From IMG/VR virus record IMGVR_UViG_3300014691_000062: a stretch of DNA of 19,618 nucleotides, one strand, 5' to 3'. The position numbers were made by a program, and so were the translations under genes. Shown in pieces: positions 1,817-19,618 of this stretch (positions within the stretch are counted from its first letter, which is position 1; every line of letters starts with the position of its first letter). The DNA comes from a virus (taxonomy: Duplodnaviria; Heunggongvirae; Uroviricota; Caudoviricetes). A model generated the notes under the pieces. That model saw only the letters and a list, made by a program, of their open reading frames with translations, was not told the origin of the DNA and searched no databases.

Positions 1817-2307
1817 GATTCGATAATTTTCAGAAACGGGTTAGTGGCTTTCTTCTGCCCCGCCAGGCCAATCAGACGCTGGCGGCTGCTGGGGTCGAGT
1901 CCGAGCATTGCCCCCGTACTGCTCATCTCGGACTCCTGTTCTTTTTTGGCGGTCAGCTCAGGATTTTTGACCATACCGCCCATTGCACCGGTGATGGTGT
2001 TGCCCTGTCTGGCAATATTTTTCACGGCACGTCGCCAGAACTCATAGGCCACACACCACCGCTCAAGCACCGCGAGGTCAGTCACGCACAGCAGGCCCTG
2101 ACCGCAGAGTTCTTTGGTTGTCAGTTGCCACATGATCGTGGCGAGAGGGAGATCTTCTTCAGCGAACCACTCCGGTGGCTCAACACCTTTGATGGGCGTA
2201 AAAACAGGTTCATCTTTATTCAGGGCTCGCTTGCCGGGGTTTCCGGCCAGCGCCTTGCGCGCCGTTGGCTTGGGGCGACGCCCGGAACGCCCCGCCGTTC
2301 CAGCCAT
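1813..2307 (-). CDS. Terminase small subunit (P27-family-like)
   Basis: Basic N-terminus, size and position immediately upstream of TerL with ATGA overlap. Preferred start is the ATG at 2307 with AGGAG 8 nt upstream; the track start at 2316 is a GTG inside that SD. Confidence 0.75.
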
Positions 2308-2432
2308 ATGCGGCACTCCTGGTTAAATTTCATTTTTCGCGGGTATAAAAAAACGATGGGGCGGGCAGTCCGGAAGACGTCAGGTCACAGGGATTTGACC
2401 CGCCCCTCCCCTCTGGCAGTGGGAACTGGTTC

Positions 2433-2783
2433 TTACTTCAGCCGTTCACGGGCCGTCTTCGCCTTATGACACGGCCAGCACAAACTCTGCAGATTACTGT
2501 CGACATCAGTGCCGCCATGCGATTTAGGGATGATGTGGTCAACGGTCTTCGCCTCACGCACCACACCAGCACGCAGACATAACTGACACAGGCCTTTGTC
2601 ACGCTTCAGGACACGCGCGCGGATACTGTCCCACTTCGAACCGTAGCCGCGCTGATGACGGGATTGTCCAGGTTTGTATTGCTTCCAGCCTTCGCTTTTG
2701 TGGCTTTCGCAGTAGCCTGAAGGGTCCGTGGTTGTAAAGCGGCAGCCGCGAACACGGCAGGCTTTTGGGGTTCGTGGGGGCAT
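2433..2783 (-). CDS. HNH endonuclease (terminase-associated)
   Basis: 116 aa with Cys-rich zinc motif and HNH-like C-terminus (…VDHIIPKSHGGTDVDSNLQSLCWPCHKAK…); GGAG SD 6 nt upstream; sits just upstream of TerS/TerL as in HK97-like cos phages. Confidence 0.85.
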   Translation of the reverse strand: MPPRTPKACRVRGCRFTTTDPSGYCESHKSEGWKQYKPGQSRHQRGYGSKWDSIRARVLKRDKGLCQLCLRAGVVREAKTVDHIIPKSHGGTDVDSNLQSLCWPCHKAKTARERLK

Positions 2784-3307: not shown

Positions 3308-3601
3308 ATGAAAAAAATGTTGTTTTCTGCCGCTCTGGCAATGCTTATTACAGGATGTGCTCAACAGACGTTTACTGTTGGAAACAAACCGACAGCAGTA
3401 ACACCAAAGGAAACCATCACCCATCATTTCTTCGTTTCGGGAATTGGACAGCAGAAAACTGTTGATGCAGCCAAAATTTGTGGCGGCGCAGAAAATGTTG
3501 TTAAAACAGAAACCCAGCAAACATTCGTAAATGGATTGCTCGGTTTTATTACTTTAGGCATTTATACTCCGCTGGAAGCGCGGGTGTATTGCTCACAATA
3601 A
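3308..3601 (+). CDS. bor: Bor outer-membrane lipoprotein (serum-resistance lysogenic-conversion protein)
   Basis: 97 aa from the internal ATG (MKKMLFSAALAMLITGCAQQTFTV…EARVYCSQ), near-identical by recall to lambda Bor; lipobox LITGC; opposite strand to and just downstream of Rz, as in lambda and DLP12. Confidence 0.9.
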   Translation: MKKMLFSAALAMLITGCAQQTFTVGNKPTAVTPKETITHHFFVSGIGQQKTVDAAKICGGAENVVKTETQQTFVNGLLGFITLGIYTPLEARVYCSQ

Positions 3602-3611
3602 TTGCATGAGT

Positions 3612-3629
3612 TGCCCATCGATATGGGCA
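3612..3629. terminator. Hairpin between convergent bor and Rz (candidate bidirectional terminator)
   Basis: Inverted repeat tgcccat-cgat-atgggca lying between the two convergent stop codons. Confidence 0.45.
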
Positions 3630-3632
3630 GCT

Positions 3633-4116
3633 CTATCTGCACTGCTCATTAATATACTTCTGGGTTCCTTCCAGTTGTTTTTGCATAGTGATCAGCCTCT
3701 CTCTGAGAGTGAAATAATCCCGTTCAGCGGTGTCTGCCAGTCGGGGGGAGGCTGCATTATCCATGCCGGAGGCGGTGGTGGCTTCACGCACTGACTGACA
3801 GACTGCTTTGATGTGCAACCGACGACGACCAGCGGCAACATCATCACGCAGAGCATCATTTTCAGCTTTCGCATCAGCTAACTCCTTCGTGTATTTTGCA
3901 TCGAGCGCAGCGACATCACGTTGGCGCACCTGCATGTCAGTAATTGCCGCGTTCGCCAGCTTCAGTTCTCTGGCATTTTTNNNNNNNNNNNNNNNNNNNN
4001 NNNNNNNNNNNNNNNNNNNNNNNNNNNNNNNNNNNNNNNNNNNNNNNNNNAGCCAATGACATGCAGACGATGATGCAGATGAGCAGAGCGGAGATAATCG
4101 CGGTTAATCTGCTCAT
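3633..4116 (-). CDS. Rz: Rz i-spanin (inner-membrane spanin subunit), interrupted by an N-run
   Basis: C-terminal part (ORF 3633..3935) matches lambda Rz by recall; N-terminus [18 protein letters not shown] is read from the ATG at 4116, which overlaps the R stop (ATGA). N-run 3981..4050 lies inside, so the length is not a multiple of 3. Confidence 0.85.
3692..3874 (-). CDS. Rz1: Rz1 o-spanin lipoprotein, embedded in Rz in the +1 frame
   Basis: 60 aa [24 protein letters not shown]…[15 protein letters not shown]…, lipobox and proline-rich body as in lambda Rz1. Confidence 0.85.
3981..4050. other. Run of 70 N (gap or masked sequence) inside Rz
   Basis: Literal n characters in the sequence. Confidence 1.
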
Positions 4117-4589
4117 ACCTCAATCTCTCTGACCGTTCCGCCTGCTTCTTTGAATTTTGCAATCAGGCTGTCAGCCTTATGCTCGAACTGGCCATAACCA
4201 GCGCCCGGCAGTGAAGCCCAGATATTGCTGCAACGGTCGATAGCCTGACGGATATCACCGCGATCAATCATCGGTAAAGCGCCACGCTCCTTAATCTGCT
4301 GCAGTGCAACAGCGTCCTGGTTTTTCGGAGAGAAGTCTTTCAGGCCAAGCTGCTTGCGGTAGGCATCCCACCAACGGGAAAGAAGCTGGTAACGTCCAGC
4401 TGCGGTTGATTTAAGTTGCGGGTTTAGCGTGACAAGTTTGCGAGGATGATCGGAGTAATCCGTGAATAGCTCACCACCTACAATAACGTCGTAGCCGTGA
4501 TTGCGGGTTGGCTGTCGCCCGTTATCCGTTCCTTCTGACCACGCCAACATATCGAGAAAAGCTTTACGCTGGGAATTTAGTACCTGCAT
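4113..4589 (-). CDS. R: Endolysin, lambda R-type lytic transglycosylase
   Basis: 158 aa, near-identical by recall to lambda R (…QRKAFLDMLAWSEGTDNGRQ…TRNHGYDVIVGGELFTDYSDHPRK…). Confidence 0.9.
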   Translation of the reverse strand: MQVLNSQRKAFLDMLAWSEGTDNGRQPTRNHGYDVIVGGELFTDYSDHPRKLVTLNPQLKSTAAGRYQLLSRWWDAYRKQLGLKDFSPKNQDAVALQQIKERGALPMIDRGDIRQAIDRCSNIWASLPGAGYGQFEHKADSLIAKFKEAGGTVREIEV

Positions 4590-4592
4590 AAA

Positions 4593-4919
4593 TTACTCCT
4601 TAGAGCCACCAAACTTGTTACCGATTACTCGCATTGCAGCCCCACGAATAGCATCGACACCGATCAGCCCCACCCCACCACCAATGGCAACAGATAGTGA
4701 TTTAGGCCATCCGACATACTCAAGCGCGGATGCAAATGTCAGCGTCAGAGCGCCACAGAGTAAAATCTCAAGCGTTTTTCGCTTCCAGCCACCACCACCG
4801 CCAAAATAGGCAATGCGCAAGCCAGCCATAACGATCGACATAATCACTGCGCCCAGTGGTGTGTCTCCACGCCACCAGCTCTGGACCAACTCCAGCCAGG
4901 TATTTGGGTTATGAGGCAT
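4593..4919 (-). CDS. Putative holin (not lambda S-like or S21-like)
   Basis: 108 aa directly upstream of the endolysin; two to three hydrophobic segments, Gly-rich stretches and a charged C-terminus; GAGGTGAG SD upstream of the ATG. Assigned on position and topology only. Confidence 0.55.
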   Translation of the reverse strand: MPHNPNTWLELVQSWWRGDTPLGAVIMSIVMAGLRIAYFGGGGGWKRKTLEILLCGALTLTFASALEYVGWPKSLSVAIGGGVGLIGVDAIRGAAMRVIGNKFGGSKE

Positions 4920-5209: not shown

Positions 5210-6244
5210 ATGACTGCATCAGCGACCCCCACTAATATCACTCATAAGTTTATTGTTCACATTATGAACAAGGAACAACAGGGGTTAGCCACCATTATTC
5301 CTTGTCCTTCAGAAAAACCTGTTCAGCAAGCATCAAAAGACCTCTCTAACGCACTTACTGAAAGGTACTCTGGGAGAGCAGGTAAAGGATATGGGAAATT
5401 TGAAGATGACCGCGATAGTTACCCTATGGGTAATATCGTTGATGATTATTTCGTAAATAAAACACATAGTTTTTATGATACTAGTATCCGAATGATCAAT
5501 CATTTAAAAGCCAGAGCCGATGATGAATCAATGTCTACTGGTGGTTATGTAATAATTGCCCATAATGAGGTAAATGGAAATCATTATTTGATGGTTGCAA
5601 TCCTAACTTCAGCAGTTGGCTCTTCAGTCCACGATTTTGAAATTCAAGAAAGTGAATATCTAGACATTGCTAAACTTCGAGTAGCGGGACGAATTGACTT
5701 AACTGGGCGCCAGAATGGCAAAGAGAGATATATTAGCTTTCTAAAGGGGCAAAATTCAGTAGCAGGTTATTTCAAAAAGTTTTTAGGTTGCAACGATATT
5801 CTAATTGCCAAACAAGAAACAACAAAATTACGGAATGCACTTTTAGAATTTGCTACTGAAAGAGGTTTTGAACCAGAGGCACGTGAAGAGTTCCTAAATA
5901 AGGCTCATGAAAAATTAAAAAATTTAAATCGTTCTGGTGAAACTTTCGACACTCAAATTTTTGCAAACGAGATATGGCCAACTGCTCCTGAGTTGTTAGT
6001 TGAAAAGTTAACCAATGACGATCTGGAGTTCTCTGATGGGTTCGTGCCTGATGGCAACGTTATACGTGGGCTTGTTAGTTTCAAAGGAAAGTCCAAACAT
6101 TGGTCTCTGAAATTCGAGCGTGCGGCCTTGCATGATGGCAGCGTTCTTTATGATTCAGAAAACGATAAATTGATACTTACCGAGATTCCGGATACGCTAA
6201 GATCAGAGATTTTATCAGAATTAGGTGAAGAGGATGAGCAGTAA
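5210..6244 (+). CDS. YejK/NdpA-like (NA37 family) nucleoid-associated-protein homologue, cargo gene
   Basis: 344 aa; AAGGA SD 7 nt upstream of the ATG. By-eye alignment to E. coli YejK along the length ([22 protein letters not shown] / [38 protein letters not shown]…RYISFLKGQ / YLDINHADIVARIDLT…RYLTFLKGR). AT-rich relative to the phage backbone. Confidence 0.75.
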   Translation: [344 protein letters not shown]

Positions 6245-7412
6245 AAATCAGAGAACCTTCAAAGACTTAGTGACTATTTACAAGGCCGCTACATTTGCAG
6301 GTACCCTATCTGAAGCATCACTCATTCTTTCAAACGAGGAGCTCTGTGACATCATCAACGATATCACAGAGAATCCCCATGATTTTGGCATCACCCTTGA
6401 ATCTGGCAACATTGAGTTAGGCCAAACTATAACCTTACATATAACCCCCCCCAAATTACGATTGGGGCAGCTACATTTCTCTTTTAATGAGTATTTAAAA
6501 AATCCTAAAAATAGGATAAAGGAAGCCAGTAACTTCTTTATAATCGAACTTAATTATCACAACAGGGATAAAAAGTCGCCTGCTATTATATCCAAGTACA
6601 GAGATGTTTTGAGCTTAATTACTTTATTCAAAGATTGTTCTGCTTATTTAGATGAAACAAATTTTGAATTGGTATTCGTCGAATCCAACGTACTAAAAAT
6701 TCCAGTAAATTATTCTAGCGATGATCTTATGAATGTTAATGGAGATCTGATTCATAATTTGATCGCAAACTTTGCAGAAGATACGCATAAAGATCAAAAA
6801 CTTACTATTTTAGCAAGTAGTATAAAATCATCATGTGAATCTAAAACTAAAGAAACCTCTTTTTCCTTCATGTTAAGGGATTTAGGACAACTTTATGAAA
6901 GTTATCAAAAAGGATACAAAGTATTCGTTTCTGGTTTTTCTTACGAGAAAATACTAGATCAGTTACGAGTAGCCAAAATAGAAGAGATGGGGAAAATACA
7001 TAAAGTATTCAGTGACATACAAAATCAGATATTAGGTATCCCCGTCGCAACAATTATCGTTGCGACTCAAATGAAGCAGGCTAATGGTTGGGATAGTCAA
7101 GCATTAATAAACACAGCTGTAGTGTTGGGTGCATTGTTCTTCACTATTATGATTATATTTGTTCTATTTAATCAATGGCAAACTTTAACAGCAATAAATG
7201 ATGAGTTAAATCATAAAAAACAACAAGCAGAATATAACTTCAAGGCTATTTACGAAGATATAAAGGATACATTTGATAGTTTAACCACAAGATTGCTTGT
7301 TCAGAAAGTTGTTTTTGCCTCATTAGGAATTATAGTTTTATGTGGCTTATATCTTACATTTAGATTCTACTTTTTACTTACACCTTATGCTATTACATAT
7401 TTATTTAGCTGA
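6234..7412 (+). CDS. Membrane protein with a large N-terminal soluble domain and two C-terminal transmembrane helices, cargo gene
   Basis: ORF 6225..7412 (GTG); preferred ATG at 6234 with AGGTGA SD, overlapping the upstream stop by 11 nt. Hydrophobic helices ALINTAVVLGALFFTIMIIFVLF and VVFASLGIIVLCGLYLTFRFYFLL. Very AT-rich. No family recognised. Confidence 0.75.
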   Translation: MSSKNQRTFKDLVTIYKAATFAGTLSEASLILSNEELCDIINDITENPHDFGITLESGNIELGQTITLHITPPKLRLGQLHFSFNEYLKNPKNRIKEASNFFIIELNYHNRDKKSPAIISKYRDVLSLITLFKDCSAYLDETNFELVFVESNVLKIPVNYSSDDLMNVNGDLIHNLIANFAEDTHKDQKLTILASSIKSSCESKTKETSFSFMLRDLGQLYESYQKGYKVFVSGFSYEKILDQLRVAKIEEMGKIHKVFSDIQNQILGIPVATIIVATQMKQANGWDSQALINTAVVLGALFFTIMIIFVLFNQWQTLTAINDELNHKKQQAEYNFKAIYEDIKDTFDSLTTRLLVQKVVFASLGIIVLCGLYLTFRFYFLLTPYAITYLFS

Positions 7413-7436: not shown

Positions 7437-7784
7437 TTACCCATGTATTATATATATAACTGCATCAATAAATCCCAATGCAGCTTGCAACTTTTTTCTT
7501 ATAGTCCCATCAGAGCATTTTCTCTTCTTCGCAATAGTGCGTAATGAGATACCGATAACATAGTGAGCAATGATTAGCTCATATTCTTCAGGCCTATATT
7601 TACGCAACCGAGCCACACAACTGTCTATCATAATGCCTTCGTCATCATCACACTGAATCCGGGACTTTTTGCCATGAGGTAAAAGTCCCTTGAAGCCAGC
7701 GGCTACCGGTTGCCAGTCCACTCCGCTATTGTCTGAAGCAGCCCAAGCTCCCCAACGATCCATTACTTCATACATATCACGCAT
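7437..7784 (-). CDS. Late-gene antiterminator Q (QuuD / phage-82 type)
   Basis: 115 aa from the ATG at 7784 (track start 7799 is TTG); GGAGAAAG SD. Matches DLP12 QuuD by recall (MRD…RWGAWAA…AAGFKGL…KSR.QC.DDD…CSDG.I.K.LQ). Confidence 0.8.
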   Translation of the reverse strand: MRDMYEVMDRWGAWAASDNSGVDWQPVAAGFKGLLPHGKKSRIQCDDDEGIMIDSCVARLRKYRPEEYELIIAHYVIGISLRTIAKKRKCSDGTIRKKLQAALGFIDAVIYIIHG

Positions 7785-7801
7785 CAACTTTCTCCACAAA
7801 A

Positions 7802-8797
7802 TCAGGCCAGCACACCAATTGCCAGCGCACGATCGATAAAACGAAATATCAGCTCCAGCTGGGAGCCATACATCTCTTCAAATGCCACGGTATCCGCATG
7901 CAGCTCGTCGTGATGCTTTCTGCACAAAGGCAACACAAAGAGGTCATGCGCTTTTGTCCCCATTCCACCCTGACCATGGCCTATCAGGTGGTGGGGATCA
8001 TCAGCGGGCTTTCCACAACATGCACACGGCTGTGTCTTAACCCAGCGCGTGTACTTTTCATTAACCCAGCGGCGACGTTTTGGGCGTAACATAAAAGACT
8101 CCGGTGACTCCGGATCCACTTTCAGCGCCAGCACCTTTTTCGCCTTATCCTGGATGATGCTGGTGGCAGGAACCGAAGGAACAAGGTCACTTTCCCGGGT
8201 GACAGACGGCACAACAGGCTTCGGTAATCTCAGTGCCTTACGGGCTGCACTTTCCGGTAAGGCATCCGCCAGGTCATTACGAACCAGCCACCAGCACAGT
8301 TCCGGCATTGTCACAACGTGACTATCATCAAAACCGAGATCACGGCGCACAACAGATAACACCCAGCGGGCACAGTTATCCGTTGCCATTGATTCCAGCC
8401 GTTCCGTGAACTGGTCACGCAACTGGTTATCGCAGTGCCAGCACAGACGGATTGCGCCCGGCGCATGGCGCGTTGTGGTCATGTTTTCGCTGTGCCAGTC
8501 GGAGTGAGGCCACTGACAGCCTTTTTCACGAAGTAACCAGCTTTCAAGACATTCCACGCCACCAGCACGACGGATCACTGCCTCATTGCGGAACACGGCC
8601 CGAACGGCAGGATCATCCGCCAGCGGTTGTGATGCTGCCGGAACGGCACCACTGGCGAAAGATGAATAACGTTCCGGCTCAGGCTCCAGCAGGACACGCC
8701 CCTGCATAAACAGGGGCATCAGTTCTGAACCTGGTCTGAACAATACGATCCCCATACGCGGGGCAATTTCAGGGGTCAGTAGTGCTCTCACGGTCAC
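7802..8797 (-). CDS. DUF968-like protein with C-terminal Cys/His-rich (HNH-like) motif
   Basis: 331 aa; C-terminus …CACCGKPADDPHHLIGHGQGGMGTKAHDLFVLPLCRKHHDELH…; immediately upstream of Q as in other lambdoid nin regions. Start uncertain (GTG at 8797, or GTG at 8791 with GAGG 5 nt upstream). Confidence 0.6.
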   Translation of the reverse strand: MTVRALLTPEIAPRMGIVLFRPGSELMPLFMQGRVLLEPEPERYSSFASGAVPAASQPLADDPAVRAVFRNEAVIRRAGGVECLESWLLREKGCQWPHSDWHSENMTTTRHAPGAIRLCWHCDNQLRDQFTERLESMATDNCARWVLSVVRRDLGFDDSHVVTMPELCWWLVRNDLADALPESAARKALRLPKPVVPSVTRESDLVPSVPATSIIQDKAKKVLALKVDPESPESFMLRPKRRRWVNEKYTRWVKTQPCACCGKPADDPHHLIGHGQGGMGTKAHDLFVLPLCRKHHDELHADTVAFEEMYGSQLELIFRFIDRALAIGVLA

Positions 8798-8798
8798 C

Positions 8799-9608
8799 TC
8801 AATGAACGGTATCGAGCAGCTTTAACAGCTCAGGGAATCGGGATTCGAAGAAATGCGGCTGCGTCTCGCGCGGATTTGCGGGACTGGTGATGTTCTTGCC
8901 GAACATGCAGCCTTTCGCTGTCAGCGACCAGAATTTTTTGATGTTGTTAATCGCGGTACGGCTGTATCGTTCGCGTTGTTCAACGATCCCCAGCTTCACC
9001 ATCTGGTGATATGCCTGATTAGCCGTCAGGCGGATACCATACTGCTTCAGCAGTGCACTCAGCGACAGCGTGGGGCGACTTGAGCCATCGTGTGCATCAG
9101 CAGGAGCATCAATGGCATAGCGCGGTGCCAGATTCGGTAAGCCAACAGCCTCCTGGAGTTTCTGACAGGCCCCAAGCACTGAAGAGTTAGACAGGTTTAA
9201 CTCCCTGCGCATAAAGTCCAGCAGAATCACTCCAGCCTGCATCTTGTCAGCAGCCTGCCCGGATAATTTTTCCGGTGCGCTGGTTACCATATCGAAAGTA
9301 CGGATCACCTTCAGATGGAATGACGGGCTGATCCACATTGCATAGGCATACACCAGTTCCTTGCAGACATAAGTTCCCCGTTCATTTCCCCCATGAATCA
9401 CACTCACCGGGTCAACACCCAAATTCTGGGTGTTGGTCAATTCATGAACAAGTTCAACAGTTTGTTGGCTGGAAAGAAACTTTCCTGGCTCCTTGGTTCT
9501 GGCATTTGCACCAGATGCTACTGCTGCGCGATGCAGATCGTTCAGGCTGTAACGCCCATAAGCATCACGACGAACTTCAATACCATCAATGACCATCAGA
9601 TTATTCAT
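8799..9608 (-). CDS. KilA-N domain protein
   Basis: N-terminus MNNLMVIDGIEVRRDAYGRYSLNDLHRAA… from the ATG at 9608 with AAGGAG SD (track start 9641 is GTG and overlaps rusA). Confidence 0.6.
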   Translation of the reverse strand: MNNLMVIDGIEVRRDAYGRYSLNDLHRAAVASGANARTKEPGKFLSSQQTVELVHELTNTQNLGVDPVSVIHGGNERGTYVCKELVYAYAMWISPSFHLKVIRTFDMVTSAPEKLSGQAADKMQAGVILLDFMRRELNLSNSSVLGACQKLQEAVGLPNLAPRYAIDAPADAHDGSSRPTLSLSALLKQYGIRLTANQAYHQMVKLGIVEQRERYSRTAINNIKKFWSLTAKGCMFGKNITSPANPRETQPHFFESRFPELLKLLDTVH

Positions 9609-9627
9609 ACTTCGTTTCTCCTTTTGC

Positions 9628-10017
9628 TCAGGCAGCTGCACCCGCCGTTTTCTCGTACTTACTGATAGTGATCTCGACCTTCCCTTCCGGGATAACCGGT
9701 CCCCACTCCACCAGCATTCTTTTCACCTGACTGTCGTCTTCCCACACCCCCGCGTGGGTCAGGGCGTCAAACAGCGCCTTGTTATAGTTGTCCAGATCGC
9801 GGATCCGGTTATCCGGAGGAAACAACACGATCTCCACTGAAGCAGGTGCCGACGTTGGTTTCGGCAGACGACGTAGCTGCTCAACTATTGCTGCGCACGC
9901 CGCACTCTGGAATTTTCGCCCCGCCGCGCTTATCAGGCTCTTACCAGCAAACGCCCCTTTGTTGGGGTGTCGCCAGTACGTGTTCACGCTGGGCGGAAAA
10001 GGCAGAATCAGCTTCAT
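9628..10017 (-). CDS. rusA: RusA Holliday-junction resolvase
   Basis: 129 aa with the RusA signature (…PPSVNTYWRH…DLDNYNKALFDALTHAGVWEDDSQV…); ATGA overlap with the upstream gene. Confidence 0.85.
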   Translation of the reverse strand: MKLILPFPPSVNTYWRHPNKGAFAGKSLISAAGRKFQSAACAAIVEQLRRLPKPTSAPASVEIVLFPPDNRIRDLDNYNKALFDALTHAGVWEDDSQVKRMLVEWGPVIPEGKVEITISKYEKTAGAAA

Positions 10018-10340
10018 ACTTTCAGGCCCCTCTCATGTAACCAGTGGGCTGCACGCAGCCTGGCGTTTTCCTCACCGGCAAGCAGTGAGCGGATAATCCC
10101 GACCGCCTCGCTGTCGTCGTCCTTCACCGCGGTATGAAGCGTTATCCCCCGGGCCACGCCACGCTTTATCGTGATGACGCCTTTTTTCTCCAGCGCACGA
10201 AGATGCTCCACCGCTGCATTCACCGAACGGTATCCCAGCATGGTTGCCACCTCCTGATTGGTTGGCGGGAAACCACGTTCTTTCTGATAAGAAATCAGCA
10301 TATCCAGCACCTGCTGCTGGCATTGAGTTAACGTCGTCAT
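10014..10340 (-). CDS. LexA N-terminal DNA-binding-domain protein lacking the S24 peptidase domain
   Basis: 108 aa; first ~70 residues align with the LexA winged HTH (QQQVLDMLISYQKERGFPPTNQEVATMLGYRSVNAAVEHLRALEKKGVI vs LexA RQQEVFDLIRDH…[34 protein letters not shown]). ATGA overlaps on both sides. Confidence 0.7.
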   Translation of the reverse strand: MTTLTQCQQQVLDMLISYQKERGFPPTNQEVATMLGYRSVNAAVEHLRALEKKGVITIKRGVARGITLHTAVKDDDSEAVGIIRSLLAGEENARLRAAHWLHERGLKV

Positions 10341-10990
10341 GCCGCCATCTCCCTGACCAGTTTTTCCGCCTGCTGACGAACCTGCTCCAGAAACGCCTCA
10401 CCACATGCCTCAAGTTCATCGCGCCCGATGTAGCTGATTGCCGGTCCCTTCCAGGTCTTGTCGAAAACAGCAATAGCACCAGCGAAGAAAGCGCCTGTCG
10501 GCACCTGCTTCTCATCCTTCGGGATAAACCAGGCAGGCAGTTCAAAACCAATACGCCCGCGAATAAAAGCAATATGATCTGCATCTTCCGGCCACCACAC
10601 TTCGCTGGTGGCAGCTTTGATCAGGAAAACATAGCGCCCGCCCTTATCACGCATGGCACTGGCATGTTTCATGATGTAACGCATGCCGGTGATGTATTGC
10701 CCCTCATGCTGACTGGCGCGGCTGTATGGGGGATTACCAAAGGCAGCACCTTTTAGCTCCGCAAGACGTTCTGACCAGTCATGCGCCAGCGCGTTGTCTT
10801 CCGCCGTGTAATACGCAGCACATTTGGCGTTATCACCGTCAGTGAACAGATCCAGAACAAACGGGCCAAACAGGGTGTTAATTCCCCAGAAAATGTTGTC
10901 CGGCGTGCGCCACTGATCGCCCACTTCCTTCAGTTCATGGGCTGGTTTGTTCCGCAGTTCCACCAGCGCCTGGCAATATTTATTACTCAT
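10337..10990 (-). CDS. Phage DNA N6-adenine methyltransferase (Dam-like orphan MTase)
   Basis: NPPY motif (AFGNPPYS); preferred ATG at 10990 shares one nt with the upstream stop (TAATG); track start 11023 is GTG. Confidence 0.8.
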   Translation of the reverse strand: MSNKYCQALVELRNKPAHELKEVGDQWRTPDNIFWGINTLFGPFVLDLFTDGDNAKCAAYYTAEDNALAHDWSERLAELKGAAFGNPPYSRASQHEGQYITGMRYIMKHASAMRDKGGRYVFLIKAATSEVWWPEDADHIAFIRGRIGFELPAWFIPKDEKQVPTGAFFAGAIAVFDKTWKGPAISYIGRDELEACGEAFLEQVRQQAEKLVREMAA

Positions 10991-11478
10991 TAAGCCCCCA
11001 CGTAATTCCCTGACAGATACCACTCTTCACCCGATGCAGCGCGCTTGCTGCTTTTCTGTAAGCACTGCTCACGACGCGCCAGAAAATTGTTTCGTTCTGG
11101 CTGGGAGTGGCTTTCACGGAATGCCGCCATCCACACCGTTGCAGCACGACGGTATAGGCCCCTGGACTCCAGTTCTTCAGCCTGGCGGGTCAGGCACAAA
11201 ATCACCCGTGGATCGTTAGTGCCGACATAGAAATTGCGCACAGGTCTGGTTTCACGAACTGGTTGTGGTTCCGGCTCCTGCGCTCTCTCAGTCAGGCGCG
11301 GGAAATGTCTGCGTGTATCCCCTTCACAACGGTGAGCCACACGCCCACTCTGACGTAACTTGCTTGCTGACTGCAGAACGCGCTGCCGTGAGTAACCTGC
11401 AAAAGCATCCGCAATATCTCCGGAAGTACAGCCCGGATGGGCTTCAATGAATTTCTGAACTTCATTCAAAAGACTCAT
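10990..11478 (-). CDS. Hypothetical protein, possibly PerC-like
   Basis: About 162 aa; C-terminal …GLYRRAATVWMAAF… is reminiscent of PerC/Pch-type regulators. Weak assignment. Confidence 0.45.
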   Translation of the reverse strand: MSLLNEVQKFIEAHPGCTSGDIADAFAGYSRQRVLQSASKLRQSGRVAHRCEGDTRRHFPRLTERAQEPEPQPVRETRPVRNFYVGTNDPRVILCLTRQAEELESRGLYRRAATVWMAAFRESHSQPERNNFLARREQCLQKSSKRAASGEEWYLSGNYVGA

Positions 11479-11480
11479 GC

Positions 11481-12313
11481 TCACCCCCTGAATCCTGCCG
11501 GGATCTGGCTGTAGTCCACGTTGTCGTAACTGGATTTGAAATACGGGTCTTCGCGTTTTTCTGTGTATGTGCTGATGGACGGCGATAAGCGCAGGGAAAG
11601 CTCATCCCATTTTTCCCGCAGCTTCGACGGGCTGAGCACGTTACGGCACCAGAACGGATCGCGGCTGACGCGGCTGTACATCTCGCAGATTTGTTTGTGA
11701 GTACGACCATCCTGCACACACATCAGGCGAATTTCGTTTGCCCAGGCTGTCCAGTTCGGTTCTTTGGGACGAACCACCTCGCCGTCACATTCGGCGGCCT
11801 GCTCGTACAGGGCGATGANNNNNNNNNNTGCTGGGTTGGGAAACCGCCGGAACGAGAAGGTTTTTTATCTGACGGATCATGTTTTGATTTTACTGACGGA
11901 TCCCCGCCAGATTCTGACGGGTGAAAACCCGCTTTTTTGCCAGATTTCGACGCATCAAATTTTGACGGGTCAGATTTTGATGCGTCAGATTTTGACGGGT
12001 CAGAATCTGACAGTTGAGAAAATGCCGCTGCCTGAAGCTTCGCAACGTTAAGCTGATAAACATTCGACGCATTGCGGTTACCCTGGCGACGCGCCTTACG
12101 CGTTAACCAGCCTTCTGCTTCCAGCCGTGCGATAGCCGTTCTGACGGTACTCATCCCCGCGCCAATCTGGCGGGCAATGGTTTCAATTGATGGCCAGCAC
12201 ACACCTTCGTCATTACTGAAATCAGCCAGGCGGGCCATAATTGCCACGCTGGATAATTTCATGCCTGATGCAGCGCAACCATCCCATACATAGCCGGTTA
12301 ATTTAGTGCTCAT
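11481..12313 (-). CDS. Replication initiator (lambda O-like organisation, HTH N-domain) with the origin iterons inside the gene; interrupted by an N-run
   Basis: N-terminal HTH domain (…WPSIETIARQIGAGMSTVRTAIARLEAEGWL…), then a repetitive SKSDASKSDPSKFD linker encoded by iterons; C-terminal part is ORF 11481..11777. N-run 11819..11828 inside; GAGGT SD. Confidence 0.7.
11819..11828. other. Run of 10 N inside the replication gene
   Basis: Literal n characters in the sequence. Confidence 1.
11866..12012. repeat. Origin-like iteron array
   Basis: About 8 tandem copies of a ~12-15 bp unit built on TGACGG (cagattttgacgggt, cagattttgatgcgt, attctgacgggt, tactgacggatc …). Confidence 0.7.
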
Positions 12314-12322
12314 GACCGACCT

Positions 12323-12661
12323 CTATTTCCCTGAATTTACGACGAAACTGTTCGAGCGGGCTGAAGCACTCATGCTCATAGCCTTCGCGGAGGTAGATAA
12401 CTCGTTGTGTTTCCGGCTCCCAACGAATGACTCTGACGGGCACTCCGTAGTGATCTTTGAACCAGCGGTTAACTTGTCGCAAAGGACTGTCTCCTTCTGC
12501 CGGTTGAAATCACCCACAGCCCACTCAGCAAAGCTGTGGGTTACAATTTCCCTGTCACCTGGTACATTAACTGCATAGCAATACTCCACCTTCGCTTTTC
12601 CACCCGGTACAGGAAGCGCAATCAGTTGCGAGCGACGGTAGTGTGTTGTTAAACTGTTCAT
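12323..12661 (-). CDS. Hypothetical protein between the cII-like gene and the replication gene
   Basis: ATG at 12661 overlaps the upstream stop (ATGA), supporting translation; the C-terminal half is low-complexity, so the true extent is uncertain. Confidence 0.45.
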
Positions 12662-13266
12662 GCGTTAGTTTCTCCACAGTCACGACACGCCACGGCGCCC
12701 GGAGCTGCACACTCGCGGGCGTCATTACTTTCTGAAATGCAAAAGATTTTGTAGACCAGTGCTGCATGCTCCTGCAGCTTCGAAATTGAGAGATACAGCT
12801 CGTCGTTAATTGCTGTCTTCTCATGCGGTTCCACCACACCGTCTTCGATTGCCGAACGAATCTGTCTGGAATAACTGCCAATCTGTTCAATGACTTCCAG
12901 CAGGCGCTGGTTAATATCGGCGTTGTCCACATCCTCGACGTCAGGAAGAGACACAAAGACGCCATTTGCAGACTGCGCCACAGCGTCAGCAATGAAGTGA
13001 GTTCCACCAGCACGTTGCAAAATCATTGCCCATCCCAGCGGGAAAATCTGATCGCCATCGGCACGAAGGCGGTTAAATAATGCGTTTTCTGTTACATCCA
13101 GCCAGTCAGCTGCTTCAGCGTAACCACCCGGCAACGCTGCGATAGTTTTTCTGACAGCTTTCACGTACCACTCAGGCTGTTTTTCTACTTTCCAGTGATG
13201 CTTACCCACGGTTAGCCTCATCGTTCTGTGGTTTCTGTTAATCGATTTATCCATTAGATTTTTCAT
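12658..13266 (-). CDS. Putative CII-like / YdaT-family regulator
   Basis: Long ORF immediately downstream of a YdaS-like cro. The track start at 13323 would overlap cro by 77 nt; plausible ATGs are at 13266, 13254 and 13221. Family assignment is from position and partial recall. Confidence 0.45.
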
Positions 13267-15031: not shown

Positions 15032-15046
15032 TTCTTTTCCTTTTGC

Positions 15047-15098
15047 GTTGTTGGGGATAACCAGATTAACCGAATCCTTGTTGTTGGGGAATAACCAG
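15047..15098. repeat. Direct repeat GTTGTTGGGGATAACCAG / GTTGTTGGGGAATAACCAG upstream of the 14597..15031 gene
   Basis: Two copies (15047..15064, 15080..15098) differing by one inserted A; on the minus strand they read TTATCCCCA, one mismatch from a DnaA-box consensus. Confidence 0.5.
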
Positions 15099-15104
15099 GT
15101 CCAC

Positions 15105-15545
15105 CTCGCCTGATGTGGCTAAAAGCAGGCACATAACAGCTAAGTATTTTTAACCAGAGAGAATCCTTAGCGTTGTGGTGAATGCGGCTCAGCGCACGCG
15201 GGTTAAGGTTGAGGCTGACAGTCGACCTTCTGTGGATACCCACCCGTCTGGTGTGCAACCTTCGCCAGGCACCGGGAGGCACCCGGCACCACAACTTTAT
15301 GCTGTGTGTAGTCCTGGAGGTACCAGTTTGTACCCTTGCTTCCGGCTGGTACCGTCCTTTTTACAAAACAGAGAAGAGCATCACCGGACGACGGGCTCAT
15401 AACCCAATCCATCCGGGCGGCTGCCACCGCAGGTGTTCTTCTCTGTTTTGTGGAGAAACTAACCGCCCCTACGGGGGCATTCATGGAAATGTAATTGACT
15501 CAATAATCGCCGGACGGTGAGGGCTTCCTTTTACCCGAATTCAGC
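15105..15545. other. GC-rich, ORF-poor, self-complementary segment (candidate structured RNA or decayed remnant)
   Basis: Only short ORFs with R/P/G-rich nonsense translations in several frames; nested inverted repeats (ggtaccag…ctggtacc 15320..15353; aacagagaaga…tcttctctgtt ~15367..15446; gcccctacgggggc ~15465..15478). Confidence 0.35.
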
Positions 15546-15575
15546 GCGGTGCAGCGCATATACGTGGAGAACAAA

Positions 15576-16112
15576 ATGTCATTTATTAAAACTTTTTCCG
15601 GGAAGCATTTTTATTATGACAGGATAAATAAAGACGACATCGTTATTAACGATATCGCGGTTTCCCTTTCAAATATCTGTCGCTTTGCAGGACATCTTTC
15701 ACACTTCTACAGTGTCGCCCAACATGCGGTGCTTTGCAGCCAGCTGGTGCCGCAGGAATTTGCTTTTGAAGCTTTAATGCATGATGCAACAGAAGCATAT
15801 TGCCAGGACATCCCCGCACCACTGAAACGACTTCTTCCTGACTATAAACGTATGGAAGAAAAAATAGACGCCGTAATCCGTGAGAAATACGGGTTACCTC
15901 CTGTTATGAGCACGCCAGTGAAATATGCCGATCTCATTATGCTGGCAACCGAACGCCGCGATCTCGGGCTTGATGATGGCTCTTTCTGGCCTGTACTGGA
16001 AGGTATCACGGCAACAGAGATGTTCAAAGTGATTCCACAGGCACCGGGCCATGCCTACGGGATGTTTATGGAACGTTTTAACGAGTTATCGGAGTTACGC
16101 AAATGCGCATGA
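15576..16112 (+). CDS. HD-domain phosphohydrolase
   Basis: H…H and HD motifs (…RFAGHLSHFYSVAQHA…LMHDATEAY…); ATG at 15576 with GGAGA SD (track start 15549 is GTG). Confidence 0.75.
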   Translation: MSFIKTFSGKHFYYDRINKDDIVINDIAVSLSNICRFAGHLSHFYSVAQHAVLCSQLVPQEFAFEALMHDATEAYCQDIPAPLKRLLPDYKRMEEKIDAVIREKYGLPPVMSTPVKYADLIMLATERRDLGLDDGSFWPVLEGITATEMFKVIPQAPGHAYGMFMERFNELSELRKCA

Positions 16113-16465
16113 ATGTTTTCGAAATGGAAGGGTTTCTTCGTGGGAGATGTGTACCGCGAGATCTGAAAGTGAATGAAACAGATGCTGAATACCTGGTACG
16201 TAAATTCGATGCGCTTGAAGCTAAATGTACAGCACTGGAAAACAAAGTAATACCAGTGTCAGCTGAACTGCCGCCAGCAAATGAAAGTGTTCTGTTATTT
16301 GATGCTAATGGAGAAGGCTGGCTGATTGGCTGGCGTTCTCTCTGGTACACCTGGGGACAAAAAGAAACCGGAGAATGGCAGTGGACATTTCAGGTCGGGG
16401 ACCTTGAAAACGTCAATATCACTCACTGGGCAGTAATGCCAAAAGCACCGGAGGCTGGAGCATAA
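16103..16465 (+). CDS. DUF551-like phage protein
   Basis: 120 aa, Trp-rich C-terminal half (…GWLIGWRSLWYTWGQKETGEWQW…); GGAG SD; start overlaps the upstream stop. Confidence 0.55.
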   Translation: MRMNVFEMEGFLRGRCVPRDLKVNETDAEYLVRKFDALEAKCTALENKVIPVSAELPPANESVLLFDANGEGWLIGWRSLWYTWGQKETGEWQWTFQVGDLENVNITHWAVMPKAPEAGA

Positions 16466-16770
16466 TGACCACTTTTACCGACAAAGAACTGATTAAAGAA
16501 ATTAAAGAGCGTATCAGCAGCCTTGACGTGCGAGACGATATTGAGCGCCGTGCTTATGAAATCGCACTCCTATCTCTGGAAGTAGAACCAGATGAACGCG
16601 AAGCTTATGAATTATTCATGGAAAAGCGTTTCGGTGACTTAGTAGATCGTCGGAGAGCAAAAAACGGCGATAACGAATACATGGCATGGGATATGACTCT
16701 CGGTTGGATCGTCTGGCAGCAACGAGCTGGTATCCATTTTTCAACAATGTCACAACAAGAGGTGAAATAA
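16465..16770 (+). CDS. Hypothetical early-region (ea-type) phage protein
   Basis: 101 aa; TAATG overlap with the upstream gene and ATGA-type overlap with xis. Confidence 0.55.
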   Translation: MTTFTDKELIKEIKERISSLDVRDDIERRAYEIALLSLEVEPDEREAYELFMEKRFGDLVDRRRAKNGDNEYMAWDMTLGWIVWQQRAGIHFSTMSQQEVK

Positions 16771-17120
16771 TGGAGCCATACAGCCTCACACTCGATGAGG
16801 CCTGTCATTTTCTCAAGATATCCAGACCGACTGCCATTAACTGGATACGCACAGGGCGTCTTCAGGCAACACGTAAAGATCCCACTAAGAATAAATCTCC
16901 TTACCTCACAACACGACAAGCCTGCATTGCGGCTCTTCAGTCTCCGCTGCATACTGTCCAGGTGAGCGCGGGTGATGGCATAACAGAGGAAAGAAAATGT
17001 CACTCTTCCGCAGAGGTGAAATATGGTACGCCAGTTTCACATTGCCGAACGGTAAAAGATTTAAACAGTCTCTTGGAACAAAGGACAAAAGGCAGGCGAC
17101 AGAACTCCATGACAAGCTAA
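16770..17120 (+). CDS. xis: Excisionase (P22-type Xis)
   Basis: 116 aa from the ATG at 16770 ([33 protein letters not shown]…); HTH and position immediately upstream of int. The ORF overlaps the int start by 124 nt, so the true C-terminus may differ. Confidence 0.8.
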
Positions 17121-18160
17121 AGGCTGAAGCATGGCGGGTCAGCAAACTTGGTGAAATACCTGATATAACGTTCGAGGAAGCTTGTGTCAGGTGGCTTGAA
17201 GAGAAAGCACATAAAAAATCACTGGACGATGACAAAAGCCGGATCGGATTCTGGCTTCAACATTTCGCAGGAATGCAACTAAGAGACATTACTGAATCAA
17301 AAATTTATTCAGCAATGCAGAAAATGACGAACCGGCGTCATGAGGAAAACTGGAAACTCAGGGCAGAAGCATGCAGAAAAAAAGGGAAACCTGTTCCAGA
17401 ATACACGCCAAAACCAGCGTCCGTTGCAACGAAGGCTACGCATCTTTCATTTATAAAGGCCCTACTAAGAGCCGCAGAGCGTGAATGGAAAATGCTGGAT
17501 AAGGCACCAATTATTAAAGTGCCTCAACCAAAGAATAAACGGATCCGCTGGCTGGAGCCCCATGAAGCACAAAGGCTGATTGATGAATGTCCGGAGCCAT
17601 TAAAGTCTGTTGTTGAATTTGCACTGGCAACAGGCTTAAGACGCTCGAACATCATCAACCTTGAATGGCAACAAATAGATATGCAGCGCCGGGTGGCATG
17701 GATAAACCCGGAAGAGAGTAAATCAAACCGCGCAATTGGCGTTGCGCTGAATGATACTGCATGTCGCGTATTGAAAAAACAAATCGGGAATCATCACCGT
17801 TGGGTATTTGTGTACAAGGAAAGCTGTACCAAACCAGACGGAACGAAAGCGCCAACAGTAAGGAAGATGCGGTATGACGCAAACACAGCCTGGAAAGCGG
17901 CGCTGAGACGGGCTGGTATTGATGATTTCAGATTTCACGACTTGAGACACACCTGGGCAAGTTGGCTGGTTCAAGCCGGAGTCCCGTTGTCAGTGTTACA
18001 GGAAATGGGAGGCTGGGAGTCTATCGAAATGGTTCGTCGATATGCTCACCTTGCACCTAATCACCTTACCGAACACGCACGGCAAATAGACTCGATCCTG
18101 AACCCATCGGTCCCAAATTTGTCCCAGTCAAAAAATAAGGAAGGTACTAATGATGTGTAA
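16997..18160 (+). CDS. int: Tyrosine site-specific integrase (P22-type Int)
   Basis: 387 aa; catalytic region …[16 protein letters not shown]…MVRRYAHL…; high similarity to P22 Int by recall; ends 14 bp before the 3' end of thrW. Confidence 0.95.
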
Positions 18161-18250
18161 CTTATTGATTTTAATGGTGCCGATAATAGGAGTCGAACCT
18201 ACGACCTTCGCATTACGAATGCGCTGCTCTACCAACTGAGCTATATCGGC
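18161..18250. other. Putative attL (core expected to overlap the 3' part of thrW)
   Basis: Junction between the int stop and the tRNA; P22-type integrases are known to target the 3' end of thrW. Exact core boundaries cannot be set without attR or attB. Confidence 0.45.
18175..18250 (-). tRNA. thrW: tRNA-Thr (anticodon CGU)
   Basis: 76-nt minus-strand sequence GCCGATATAGCTCAGTTGGTAGAGCAGCGCATTCGTAATGCGAAGGTCGTAGGTTCGACTCCTATTATCGGCACCA: cloverleaf, CGT anticodon, encoded CCA end. Confidence 0.95.
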
Positions 18251-18364
18251 CCTGAAAGGACATGTTCACGAACGTGAATCACGGTGGACAAGGTTAAAAC
18301 TAACCGGGCGATGCGTCAATGGCCTTGTGAATCAAATGGCTACTTTTGCATCACCCGGTTTTAT

Positions 18365-19618
18365 TTACGCACGAATGGTGTAATCACCAATGCCGATCCA
18401 CTTGTAAGTGGTCAGTGCTTCCAGCCCCATTGGGCCACGCGCGTGGAGTTTTTGTGTGCTTACCGCCACTTCCGCACCCAGACCAAACTGGCCGCCGTCG
18501 GTAAAACGCGTAGAGGCGTTAACGTAAACAGCGGACGAATCCACTTCGTTAACAAAACGCTGGGCGTTGCGCATATCGCGGGTCAGGATCGCATCGGAGT
18601 GTTGTGTGCCGTGTTCACGAATATGGGCGATGGCATCGTCAAGATCGCTGATGATTTTGGCGTTCAAATCTAATGACAGAAACTCATCGTCATACTCTTC
18701 GGCTTTAACAGCAACCACCTTCGCAGGGCCTGCCTGCAACTGCGCCAGTGCAGCTGCATCTGCGTGTAATGTCACGCCGCTTTCCGCCATTTGTTTGCTT
18801 AATGCGGGCAGGAAGCTATCGGCGATGTTTTTATTCACCAGCAACGTTTCAACCGTATTACATGTGCTCGGACGCTGAGTTTTCGCGTTGACGATCACTT
18901 TTAATGCTTCAGCGATCTCTACACTTTCATCAACGTAAATATGGCATACGCCTATACCACCTGTGATCACCGGGATTGTCGACTGTTCACGGCACAGTTT
19001 ATGCAAACCAGCGCCACCACGCGGGATCAGCATGTCGATGTATTTATCCATACGCAGCATTTCACTGACCAGCGCACGGTCAGGATTATCAATCGCCTGC
19101 ACGGCACCCGCCGGTAAGCCGCAGGATTTCAGGGCGTCCTGAATCACCGCCACCGTTGCAGCGTTAGTGCGACACGTTTCTTTGCCACCGCGCAGGATCA
19201 CCGCATTACCGGTTTTCAGGCACAGCGAAGCGACATCAACCGTCACGTTCGGGCGCGCTTCATAAATCACGCCAATAACCCCCAGCGGTACGCGACGACG
19301 CTCAAGACGCAGGCCGCTGTCCAGTACGCTGCCATCGATTACCTGCCCCACCGGATCGGCGAGGTTACACACCTGGCGCACATCATCGGCAATGCCTTTC
19401 AGCCGTGCGGGCGTCAGTGCCAGACGGTCAAGCATCGCTTCGCCAAGGCCATTGGCACGCGCGTCAGCAACATCCTGGGCGTTAGCGTTGAGGATGATTT
19501 CGCTTTGTGCTTCCAGTTCATCGGCGATTTTTTCCAGCACGCGATTTTTTTCGCGGCTGGAGAGTTGCGCTAATTTATACGAGGCTTGCTTCGCGGCAAT
19601 GCCCATTTGTTCCAGCAT
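18365..19618 (-). CDS. proA: Gamma-glutamyl phosphate reductase
   Basis: Complete 417-aa ORF, start codon at the window edge; matches E. coli ProA by recall ([21 protein letters not shown]…). Confidence 0.95.

Follow-up and report, generated by a model that had tools for sequence, protein, structure and literature searches.

A probable SfII/SfV/SfIV-type lambdoid prophage end in thrW, with a low-GC gene pair between Q and the holin gene

Genes and features of the window

The window, by which we mean the whole 19,618-bp stretch of DNA analysed, contains 18,220 bases of phage sequence that meet host sequence within thrW, with proA as the flanking host gene (Table 1).

Table 1. Coordinates of features in the window (positions and strand as in the window)
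Feature	Position	Strand	Assignment or relatives
cos packaging module	90..2783	-	Pfam, SfV/SfIV genome ends
TerL (N mask at 325-393)	90-1816	-	
TerS, P27 family	1813-2307	-	PF05119
cos junction	2374/2375		SfV/SfIV genome ends meet here
HNH	2433-2783	-	PF01844
Lysis module, S-R-Rz/Rz1-bor	3308..4919		Pfam, protein comparison
bor	3308-3601	+	PF06291
Rz/Rz1 (N mask at 3981-4050)	3633-4116	-	PF03245
R transglycosylase	4113-4589	-	
S holin	4593-4919	-	PF05106
Low-GC two-gene cargo, slot between Q and holin	5210..7412	+	
NA37/YejK-like protein	5210-6244	+	
395-aa membrane protein (orf395)	6225-7412	+	
Early-right operon, CII-like protein to Q	7437..13209	-	
Q	7437-7784	-	QuuD family
DUF968/HNH	7802-8791	-	
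KilA-N	8799-9608	-	
RusA	9628-10017	-	
LexA-N protein	10014-10340	-	
Dam	10337-10990	-	
PerC/YfdN	10990-11484	-	
Replication protein (N mask at 11819-11828)	11481-12313	-	
orf112	12323-12661	-	
CII-like CP76/YmfL	12658-13209	-	
Immunity region	13247..14260		Proteins 100% aa identical to vB_EcoM-689R6; unlike SfII and SfV
cro	13247-13447	-	
Operator repeats, ACTAAG-N4-CTTAGT-like	13459, 13508, 14236		
cI	13545-14171	+	HTH + S24 peptidase domains
Small PL-proximal ORF	14419-14625	+	Common to SfIV and vB_EcoM-689R6
ECs1072-family gene, reverse-oriented	14597-15031	-	Common to SfIV and vB_EcoM-689R6
Truncated ORF of SfIV gp34 / SfII_35 type, across yfdP/yfdQ-less junction (15465)	15182..15520	+	
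Early-left cluster	15576..16770	+	All 97-100% aa identity to SfV, SfII, SfIV
yfdR-type HD 5'-deoxynucleotidase	15576-16112	+	
DUF551 protein	16103-16465	+	
YfdT	16465-16770	+	
xis, 116 aa, HTH_17 domain	16770..17120	+	P22 Xis 87%, SfV/SfII 98-99% identity
int, tyrosine recombinase, 387 aa	16997..18160	+	P22 90%, SfV 98%, SfII 99%, SfIV 100% identity
att core (attL), 46 bp	18175..18220		Same in P22, SfV, SfII, SfIV attP
thrW, tRNA-Thr(CGU), intact	18175..18250	-	ARAGORN; 100% identity to K-12 thrW
proA, glutamate-5-semialdehyde dehydrogenase, host gene flanking prophage	18365..19618	-	

The packaging module shares with HK97 the order HNH-cos-TerS-TerL and the Pfam families HNH, Terminase_4 and TerL_ATPase/nuclease, in agreement with an earlier sequence-only reading of this DNA that had described the packaging genes as HK97-like (an HNH gene with a P27-type TerS); PGAP names a protein 99% identical to TerS 'P27 family'. 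The sequences themselves differ from HK97, with TerL at just 24% aa identity and HNH at 42% over 41% of its length, and the close relatives are in the SfV/SfII/SfIV group (99% aa identity for TerS and TerL and 93-94% for HNH).

The lysis cassette has a lambda-type composition, with a class I S, R, Rz with embedded Rz1, and further downstream bor on the other strand; near-identical loci have an annotated Rz1 (PF06085). The lambda- or DLP12-like character previously suggested for the lysis genes and bor is upheld at the protein level, Rz being 98% identical to lambda and DLP12 alike, Bor 87% identical to lambda and 89% to DLP12, and R 94% identical to lambda R and 96% to HK97. The likeness is local and restricted to the Rz-Rz1-bor module: the segment at 3254-3980, which SfII, SfV and SfIV lack, has 93.6% nucleotide identity to lambda and 93.0% to DLP12. 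The holin is a member of the Pfam lambda-S family, with SfII S as its nearest relative (98%). The same origin had been proposed for Q, and here only the DLP12 part stands: Q belongs to the QuuD type (PF06530, E = 5e-45), sharing 47% identity with DLP12 QuuD, and it lies outside the lambda Q family (PF06323), with no tblastn match to lambda Q in the window.

The early-left arm is short. BLAST, Pfam and PHROGs comparisons identified no exo, bet, gam, erf, abc, kil, cIII or N gene in the window, and the arm itself gave no recombinase, Kil, CIII or N in Pfam and PHROGs scans, consistent with the lack of erf/abc, bet/exo, kil and cIII remarked on before. Among 35 early-left and regulatory proteins of lambda, P22 and HK97 searched by relaxed tblastn, the sole real match in the window is that of the HK97 gp37 N-terminus to the DUF551 gene, and the others have no credible match. 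A lambda CII match at 18194-18322 (E = 5e-5) was discarded as spurious, the region being thrW and host spacer identical to K-12, and a promoter scan of 13200-15600 gave a count no higher than the shuffle level. Relative to SfV, SfIV and strain A65EC, 1,304 bp containing yfdP and yfdQ are missing; the resulting ~1.3-kb yfdP/yfdQ-less junction (15465) is present in SfII (99.1% identity) and phage SKA5 (98.6%), and is contiguous in 413 of 5,426 complete E. coli genomes; an exact search of genome contigs with 33 nt across the junction gave no match. Because the SfV YfdQ and YfdP proteins fall in PHROGs 210 and 204, both annotated 'unknown function', the absence of these genes points to no particular loss of function. 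From cI to int, SfII has 2.6 kb and SfV 3.9 kb, compared with 8.3 kb for lambda and 8.5 kb for P22, whose arm carries erf, abc, kil, c3 and gene 24.

Integration module and attachment site at thrW

ARAGORN predicts a single tRNA-Thr(CGT) at 18175-18250 on the minus strand; over this tRNA and the spacer that separates it from proA, identity to K-12 proA-thrW (b0244) is 100%. The 46-bp core TGGTGCCGATAATAGGAGTCGAACCTACGACCTTCGCATTACGAAT occurs once in the window (0 of 200 shuffles matched) and exactly in the attP regions of P22, SfV, SfII and SfIV. Homology to SfV and P22 stops at 18220, in the anticodon loop of thrW, and the gene is composed of a phage-derived part (18175-18220) and a host-derived part (18221-18250). 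The location in thrW and the P22-like integrase and excisionase, both recognized in the sequence-only reading, are borne out. Int aligns with P22 Int without gaps at 348 of 387 positions (90%) and matches Pfam Phage_integrase (PF00589) over the full domain (E = 3e-48), and Xis, a member of PHROG 2907 (excisionase), matches P22 Xis at 101 of 116 positions (87%), also ungapped; the 124-nt overlap of xis and int is the same in P22. Residues R215, H314, R317 and Y349 of Int can be read off the P22 alignment in the pattern R..HxxR..Y, and from knowledge of the tyrosine recombinase family we take these to be catalytic.

In the most likely course of events, a P22-type integrase would have recombined the 46-bp attP core with the same 46 bp at the 3' end of thrW; the copy brought in by the phage would rebuild an intact tRNA gene, and therefore the host would lose nothing, and Xis would direct excision. 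This arrangement is of an already known type, and nothing novel is left in it: thrW is the integration site of SfI, SfII, SfIV and SfV (PMC3851460) and is used by P22-like phages (PMC2629481), and 1,101 of the 5,426 complete E. coli genomes carry the int-xis module.

Relationship to the SfII/SfV/SfIV phages

Of the 18,220 phage bases, 13,904 (76%) align collinearly with SfV, SfII or SfIV, at about 88-99.5% nucleotide identity per aligned segment, and the SfV and SfII annotations have the same gene order as the window. SfII is the best single phage (12,709 of 18,220 phage bases, 70%, by blastn), and in protein comparisons 21 of 31 are at least 90% identical to SfII with their order kept. In megablast comparisons of the whole 19,618-bp window, vB_EcoM-689R6 covers 60%, and SfII and SfIV cover 50-51%. 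We found no single sequenced phage that matches end to end, and no complete E. coli genome that does so (best coverage 89%); the full-length collinear match to one known phage, named earlier as the result that would count against a mosaic, is thus not literally present, the nearest being the 70% of SfII.

SfII (NC_021857 / KC736978) shares with the window int and xis (99% aa identity), the exact core, the identical yfdP/yfdQ-less early-left arm (99.1% nucleotide identity across the junction), the gene order including a two-gene cargo in reverse orientation between Q and S, and TerS/TerL, HNH, S, R, DUF968, RusA, Dam, PerC, the replication protein and orf112 at 91-100% aa identity. It differs in the cI/cro immunity region and two adjoining ORFs, in Q (just 75% identical), in having its own Rz/Rz1, no bor and another Q-S cargo, and in carrying IS elements that are absent from the window; its gtrII cassette and Mu-like tail map to the region beyond the window. 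SfV (NC_003444) and SfIV (NC_022749) have the same architecture and thrW attP, with Int at 98-100% identity, yfdT, DUF551 and yfdR at 97-100%, and the terminase at 99% to SfV. Both keep yfdP/yfdQ and have immunity regions and Q genes unlike those of the window; in addition, the SfV replication genes are different and SfIV has no Dam. Phage vB_EcoM-689R6 (ON470584) shares the TerL-to-yfdR backbone at 92-100% aa identity, with cro, cI, the CII-like gene and the ECs1072 gene identical and the ORF beside the latter at 97%, but it has an e14-type integrase next to icd in place of the P22-type module at thrW, keeps yfdP/yfdQ, and has a different Q, Rz and cargo.

TerL is split into two ORFs in different frames (284-1816 and 90-287). 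The 69-N mask in this gene stands for 76 nt in relatives, the 70-N mask in Rz for 48 nt, and the 10-N mask in the replication gene for 125 nt; because the masks alter length, the breaks in these three genes are only apparent. Decay as an explanation of the TerL split was rejected, since the mask is not length-preserving and the nearest contig, L020, which is 99.97% identical over window positions 1-7756, encodes TerL as an intact 577-aa protein. The window shows no visible lesion, neither an IS element nor a truncation. Beyond TerL, L020 continues with portal, HK97-type protease and capsid genes and then Mu-type sheath and tube genes, and an HK97-type head with Mu-like contractile tail genes is present in the nearest contigs (L013, L018-L020). 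The close E. coli relative A65EC has the same left half joined to a lambda-type siphovirus tail, and its two att cores are separated by 43.0 kb. Contig L016 has two att cores just 13 kb apart and is a decayed thrW element. In the APEC20/16 relative, a baseplate gene is frameshifted.

With the sequence identities, collinearity and att junction observed directly, the window very probably contains the attL side of a lambdoid temperate phage of the SfII/SfV/SfIV type that is inserted in thrW beside proA. It has the Int, Xis and core of that group, which comprises Shigella serotype-converting phages and E. coli relatives, together with cos packaging, the short early-left arm, and a collinear early-right, nin and lysis backbone. 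A gtrA/gtrB/gtr(type) O-antigen modification cassette, which adjoins attP in the group, would be located at the attR end, beyond the window. Outside the integration module, the window would correspond to the family backbone, with a short PL arm (yfdR, DUF551, yfdT), a cI/cro switch, the replication and 'nin' region, RusA, a QuuD-type Q, the Q-holin cargo slot, S-R-Rz/Rz1 with bor, and HNH-cos-TerS-TerL. Judged from its sequence, the present copy may encode active Int and Xis and may be inducible.

A different view, advanced from the sequence alone, takes the prophage for a distinctive mosaic of several parents and reads its pruned early-left arm as the sign of a partly defective, cryptic element. 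We consider this possible but unlikely. It draws on the missing 1,304 bp with yfdP/yfdQ and the ORF truncated at 15465, whose equivalent PGAP flags as frameshifted in other genomes, on the lack of recombination, kil and cIII genes, and on the existence of decayed thrW elements such as L016 and of the APEC20/16 baseplate frameshift; the phage part of the window also ends in TerL, with the remainder of the prophage beyond it. However, the same junction and arm occur in SfII, which was induced from a lysogen and infects several serotypes (PMC3772137), as well as in the 413 complete genomes. The SfV/SfII/SfIV family is characterized by short arms that have no N, cIII or recombinase, and cII, cIII and N are absent from SfII, SfIV and SfV (PMC3851460), viable members of that family. 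The entire visible 18.2 kb is collinear and full-length in comparison with functional phages, and N masks account for the seeming breaks in TerL, Rz and the replication gene. The affinities assigned gene by gene do hold, and what falls away is the particular multi-parent mosaic, the architecture being the published one of SfV/SfII/SfIV. Mosaic make-up and a short early-left arm are normal for this family and therefore do not point to a phage that is new or broken, and the differences from the sequenced Shigella phages in immunity, Rz-bor and Q-S cargo are normal module swaps.

A P22-like (Lederbergvirus) podovirus prophage would account for the Int and Xis identities, the identical att core and the shared tRNA target, but it is extremely improbable and is refuted for the visible part. 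Nucleotide similarity to P22 amounts to just 1,451 nt (16770-18220), from the start of xis to the end of the core, and beyond int/xis there is no P22-specific protein (Cro 30%, cI 47%, Rz 52%). The terminase is of the cos/HNH/P27 type, not P22 gp3/gp2; erf, abc1/2, arf, kil, c3, gene 24 and sieB were not found; and the pac terminase, immI and podovirus tail are features of P22, which resembles the window in its integration module only. Derivation from lambda or DLP12 with secondary acquisition of a P22 integration module has hardly any probability either. The ~93% Rz-bor segment, the 94% identity to lambda R and the QuuD-family Q point in that direction, but the segment map refutes it: lambda covers just 1,248 of the 18,220 phage bases and DLP12 2,300, much of the latter being the 72%-identical int region, and neither of them has counterparts of the replication, nin, packaging and early-left genes.

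The correct label is accordingly an SfII/SfV-like prophage at thrW, rather than a new mosaic or presumed cryptic phage, and this has little importance beyond correct annotation. It does illustrate that a P22-like integrase does not make a P22-like phage, that missing lambda-style early-left genes are no criterion for defectiveness in the SfII/SfV/SfIV family, and that frameshifts beside N masks should not be taken as decay. The interest of the family lies in its lysogenic-conversion cargo, represented by gtr cassettes in Shigella and by bor and other morons here.

The gene pair between Q and the holin gene

The cassette of an NA37-like gene and a membrane protein gene is the only feature of the window with discovery potential. 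The YejK/NA37-like product is a predicted DNA-binding protein. The orf395 product has two C-terminal membrane helices, no Pfam family and no PDB sequence match, and its AlphaFold model (pLDDT 80.5) gave no Foldseek PDB match better than E = 0.25. PADLOC found no match in the Q-S cargo, and in the literature we found no paper naming NA37 together with prophage. The cassette (5210-7412) could conceivably be an undescribed phage-borne exclusion or anti-phage module, a proposal that we regard as quite doubtful. Klebsiella and Sinorhizobium phages, Morganella prophages and a Methylotenera genome also have the two genes side by side in this order, and in the Morganella prophages the pair is again located between Q and the holin gene.

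Integration module and attachment site

The window extends from the interior of the phage morphogenesis operon to host proA, with prophage DNA making up all sequence left of 18220. At the right end of the prophage the xis and int genes are followed by thrW, the sole tRNA gene in the window (see table), and the tRNA together with the spacer to proA is 100% identical to the proA-thrW region (b0244) of E. coli K-12. Int and Xis align without gaps to their P22 counterparts (348/387, 90%, and 101/116, 87%, identical residues respectively), and the two genes overlap in P22 by the same 124 nt. The 46 bp core at the 3′ end of the tRNA is present in a single copy, is matched in none of 200 shuffles, and is shared without a mismatch by the attP region of P22 and those of the Shigella thrW phages SfV, SfII, and SfIV. 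When the window, SfV, and P22 are aligned together, similarity to the two phages' attP flanks ends at 18220 within the anticodon loop, with host tRNA sequence beyond. This is the classic layout of tRNA-gene integration, the phage bringing a new 3′ portion of the gene. Nucleotide similarity to P22 (80.5%) is confined to 16770–18220, placing the module boundary at the xis start codon.

The att junction and module boundaries are thus located, Int, Xis, and the core match experimentally studied systems, and the sequence-only reading was correct in describing a P22-type int-xis module attached at thrW. By analogy with P22 and lambda-type site-specific recombination, Int would recombine attP with the 46 nt at the 3′ end of thrW, and Xis with host bending proteins would run integration backwards; alignment with P22 Int predicts R215, H314, R317, and Y349 as catalytic residues. 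A P22-type int-xis module (coverage of at least 80%) is present in 1,101 of 5,426 complete E. coli genomes.

Features of the window and stretches not covered by SfV, SfII, or SfIV
Coordinates	Feature	Strand	Remarks
325–393	N run		69 nt; not covered
3195–4104	Not covered		Holds the Rz-bor piece
3254–3980	Rz/Rz1-bor segment		
3981–4050	N run		70 nt
5175–7464	Not covered		Low-GC two-gene cargo
5210–7412	Two-gene cargo	+	Between Q and holin; 31–39% GC
10337–10990	Dam-family N6-adenine methyltransferase gene	−	
11819–11828	N run		10 nt
13235–14266	Not covered		Immunity region
13459–13523	Operator-like repeats		Two, between cro and cI
14225–14253	Sigma-70-like hexamer pair	+	Candidate PL
14236–14251	Operator-like repeat		One, just downstream of cI
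14419–15031	Small PL-proximal ORF and ECs1072-family gene		Overlapping; ECs1072-family gene reverse-oriented
15182–15520	gp34-type ORF		Cut short at 15465
15464–15479	GC-rich hairpin		CGCCCCTACGGGGGCA
16770–17120	xis		116 aa; HTH_17 domain; PHROG 'excisionase'
16997–18160	int		387 aa; Pfam Phage_integrase, E = 3e-48
18175–18220	att core		46 bp
18175–18250	thrW, tRNA-Thr(CGT)		
18365–19618	proA	−	Host gene

Relationship to the Shigella thrW phages

The combination of P22-like integration genes with lambda- or DLP12-like late functions and HK97-like packaging had been read as a multi-parent mosaic, and most of its components are confirmed. Bor (PF06291) has 87% and 89% amino acid identity to lambda and DLP12 Bor, Rz is 98% identical to both, R is 94% identical to lambda R and 96% to that of HK97, and the holin belongs to the lambda-S family, in agreement with the proposed lysis and bor assignments. 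Q is a QuuD-family protein (PF06530) with 47% identity to DLP12 QuuD, and does not belong to the lambda Q family. The packaging genes (HNH, TerS [Terminase_4; PGAP 'P27 family'], and TerL) are HK97-like in strategy and protein family but not in sequence, TerL being 24% identical to HK97 TerL.

As a novelty, however, the mosaic is not sustained. The sequenced phages recovered by megablast with the whole window fall into two groups: serotype-converting phages of Shigella flexneri (SfIV, SfII, and SfV) and induced coliphages (vB_EcoM-689R6, 720R4, and SKA5). Of the 18,220 phage bases, 13,904 have a collinear match in at least one of SfV, SfII, and SfIV, and 21 of 31 protein entries have at least 90% identity to SfII with order preserved. 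The SfV and SfII annotations have the identical layout: P27-type TerS, TerL, HK97-type head, (tail), (cargo), attP, int, xis, yfdT, DUF551, and yfdR, then cI, cro, replication, RusA, DUF968, Q, cargo, S, R, Rz, HNH, and cos. The element is an E. coli member of this already known phage type, differing in its immunity region, lambda-type Rz-bor, and cargo between Q and S. Phage vB_EcoM-689R6 has cro and cI proteins 100% identical to those of the window and the same backbone, but an e14-type integrase adjoining icd; integration modules are evidently swapped freely within the family.

The Rz/Rz1-bor segment has ~93% nucleotide identity to lambda and DLP12, while the adjacent S gene has its nearest relatives in the Sf phages and R resembles both groups closely; the segment is a sharp local recombination patch within the lysis cassette. 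The Dam-family gene is also present in SfV, SfII, and 689R6, is missing from SfIV and the closest E. coli prophages (A65EC, L011–L019), and so acts like a cassette that is either present or absent between the PerC and LexA-N genes.

The early-left arm and integrity of the prophage

Recognizable recombination genes, kil, and cIII had been noted as missing, and this is borne out: neither relaxed tblastn with 35 lambda, P22, and HK97 proteins nor Pfam and PHROGs searches of every ORF in the arm find exo, bet, gam, erf, abc1/2, arf, kil, cIII, N/24, ral, or sieB. The cI–int distance is 2.8 kb, compared with 2.6 kb in SfII, 3.9 kb in SfV, 8.3 kb in lambda, and 8.5 kb in P22; cII, cIII, and N are absent from SfII, SfIV, and SfV (PMC3851460). 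Relative to SfV, SfIV, and the A65EC prophage, the window lacks 1,304 bp containing yfdP and yfdQ. SfII has no homologue of SfIV orf33 (PMC3851460), which corresponds to yfdQ. The junction at 15465 is also present in SfII (99.1% identity) and SKA5 (98.6%), and as a contiguous match in 413 of 5,426 complete E. coli genomes, which marks it as one old deletion that spread, not as recurrent decay. YfdQ and YfdP fall in PHROGs of unknown function, so no functional loss can be named. The junction is clean and lies in a GC-rich hairpin.

A partly defective prophage, as had been suggested, is not supported. SfII, with the same junction, was recovered from a lysogen by induction, proved to be a myovirus on imaging, and infects several serotypes (PMC3772137); the short arm is accordingly consistent with full viability. 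All genes in the visible 18.2 kb are full-length relative to counterparts in functional phage, the cos junction is unbroken, and no IS elements are found there, although SfII and SfIV do carry them. In near-identical contigs, TerL is followed by genes for portal, protease, capsid, connector, sheath, and tube proteins. TerL, Rz, and the replication gene look split because the N runs shift reading frames; these runs stand in for 76, 48, and 125 nt in close relatives without preserving length, and are masking or assembly artefacts. They do not mark pseudogenisation; in contig L020 (99.97% identical to window positions 1–7756) TerL is intact at 577 aa.

Elements of this type at thrW vary among E. 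coli genomes. The closest complete-genome relative, A65EC (NZ_CP182331.1 3630894–3673927; 89% of the window at 98.1%), carries two cores separated by 43.0 kb. Its early, lysis, packaging, and head genes are the same, but its tail is of the lambda/HK97 non-contractile (siphovirus) type, unlike the Mu-like tail of SfII and SfV, so that the window is no guide to tail type. The tail of APEC20/16 is Mu-type, with a frameshift in one baseplate gene. In L016 (GCA_030384885.1 CP128613.1, 4352–17652) two exact thrW cores 13 kb apart enclose P22-type int, a lambda-type nin/Q region, lysis genes, HNH, TerS, TerL, and then non-phage genes; this is a decayed chimeric remnant and a model of a genuinely defective thrW element.

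Immunity region and cargo genes

Operator-like near-palindromes of the form ACTAAG-N4-CTTAGT flank cI on both sides, with four matches in the window against 0.34 expected, and the nearby hexamer pair could act as PL. The small ORF and the overlapping ECs1072-family gene (PHROG 5286, unknown function) lie just past the OL-like operator, a position that rexAB/sieB-type exclusion genes occupy in lambda. The pair has no PADLOC match, and is common to SfIV and vB_EcoM-689R6 but not present in SfII or SfV.

The first cargo gene between Q and S encodes an NA37/YejK-like nucleoid-associated protein (PF04245, E = 8e-69; PDB 9BE2, E = 2e-19). The second overlaps it and codes for a 395-aa protein with two C-terminal hydrophobic (TM) helices, no sequence match in Pfam, PADLOC, or PDB, and a confident predicted model (pLDDT 80.5) for which Foldseek against PDB gives nothing better than E = 0.25. 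Our guess is that the cassette may be an exclusion or defence module of a kind not yet described. It is rare in E. coli (16 of 5,426 complete genomes); homologues of the 395-aa protein form at least 360 clusters, and the gene pair stays together with its order unchanged in Klebsiella phage Kp4865-4, Sinorhizobium phage phi2LM21, a gut phage scaffold, a Methylotenera genome, and Morganella prophages, where they again occupy the antiterminator–holin slot.
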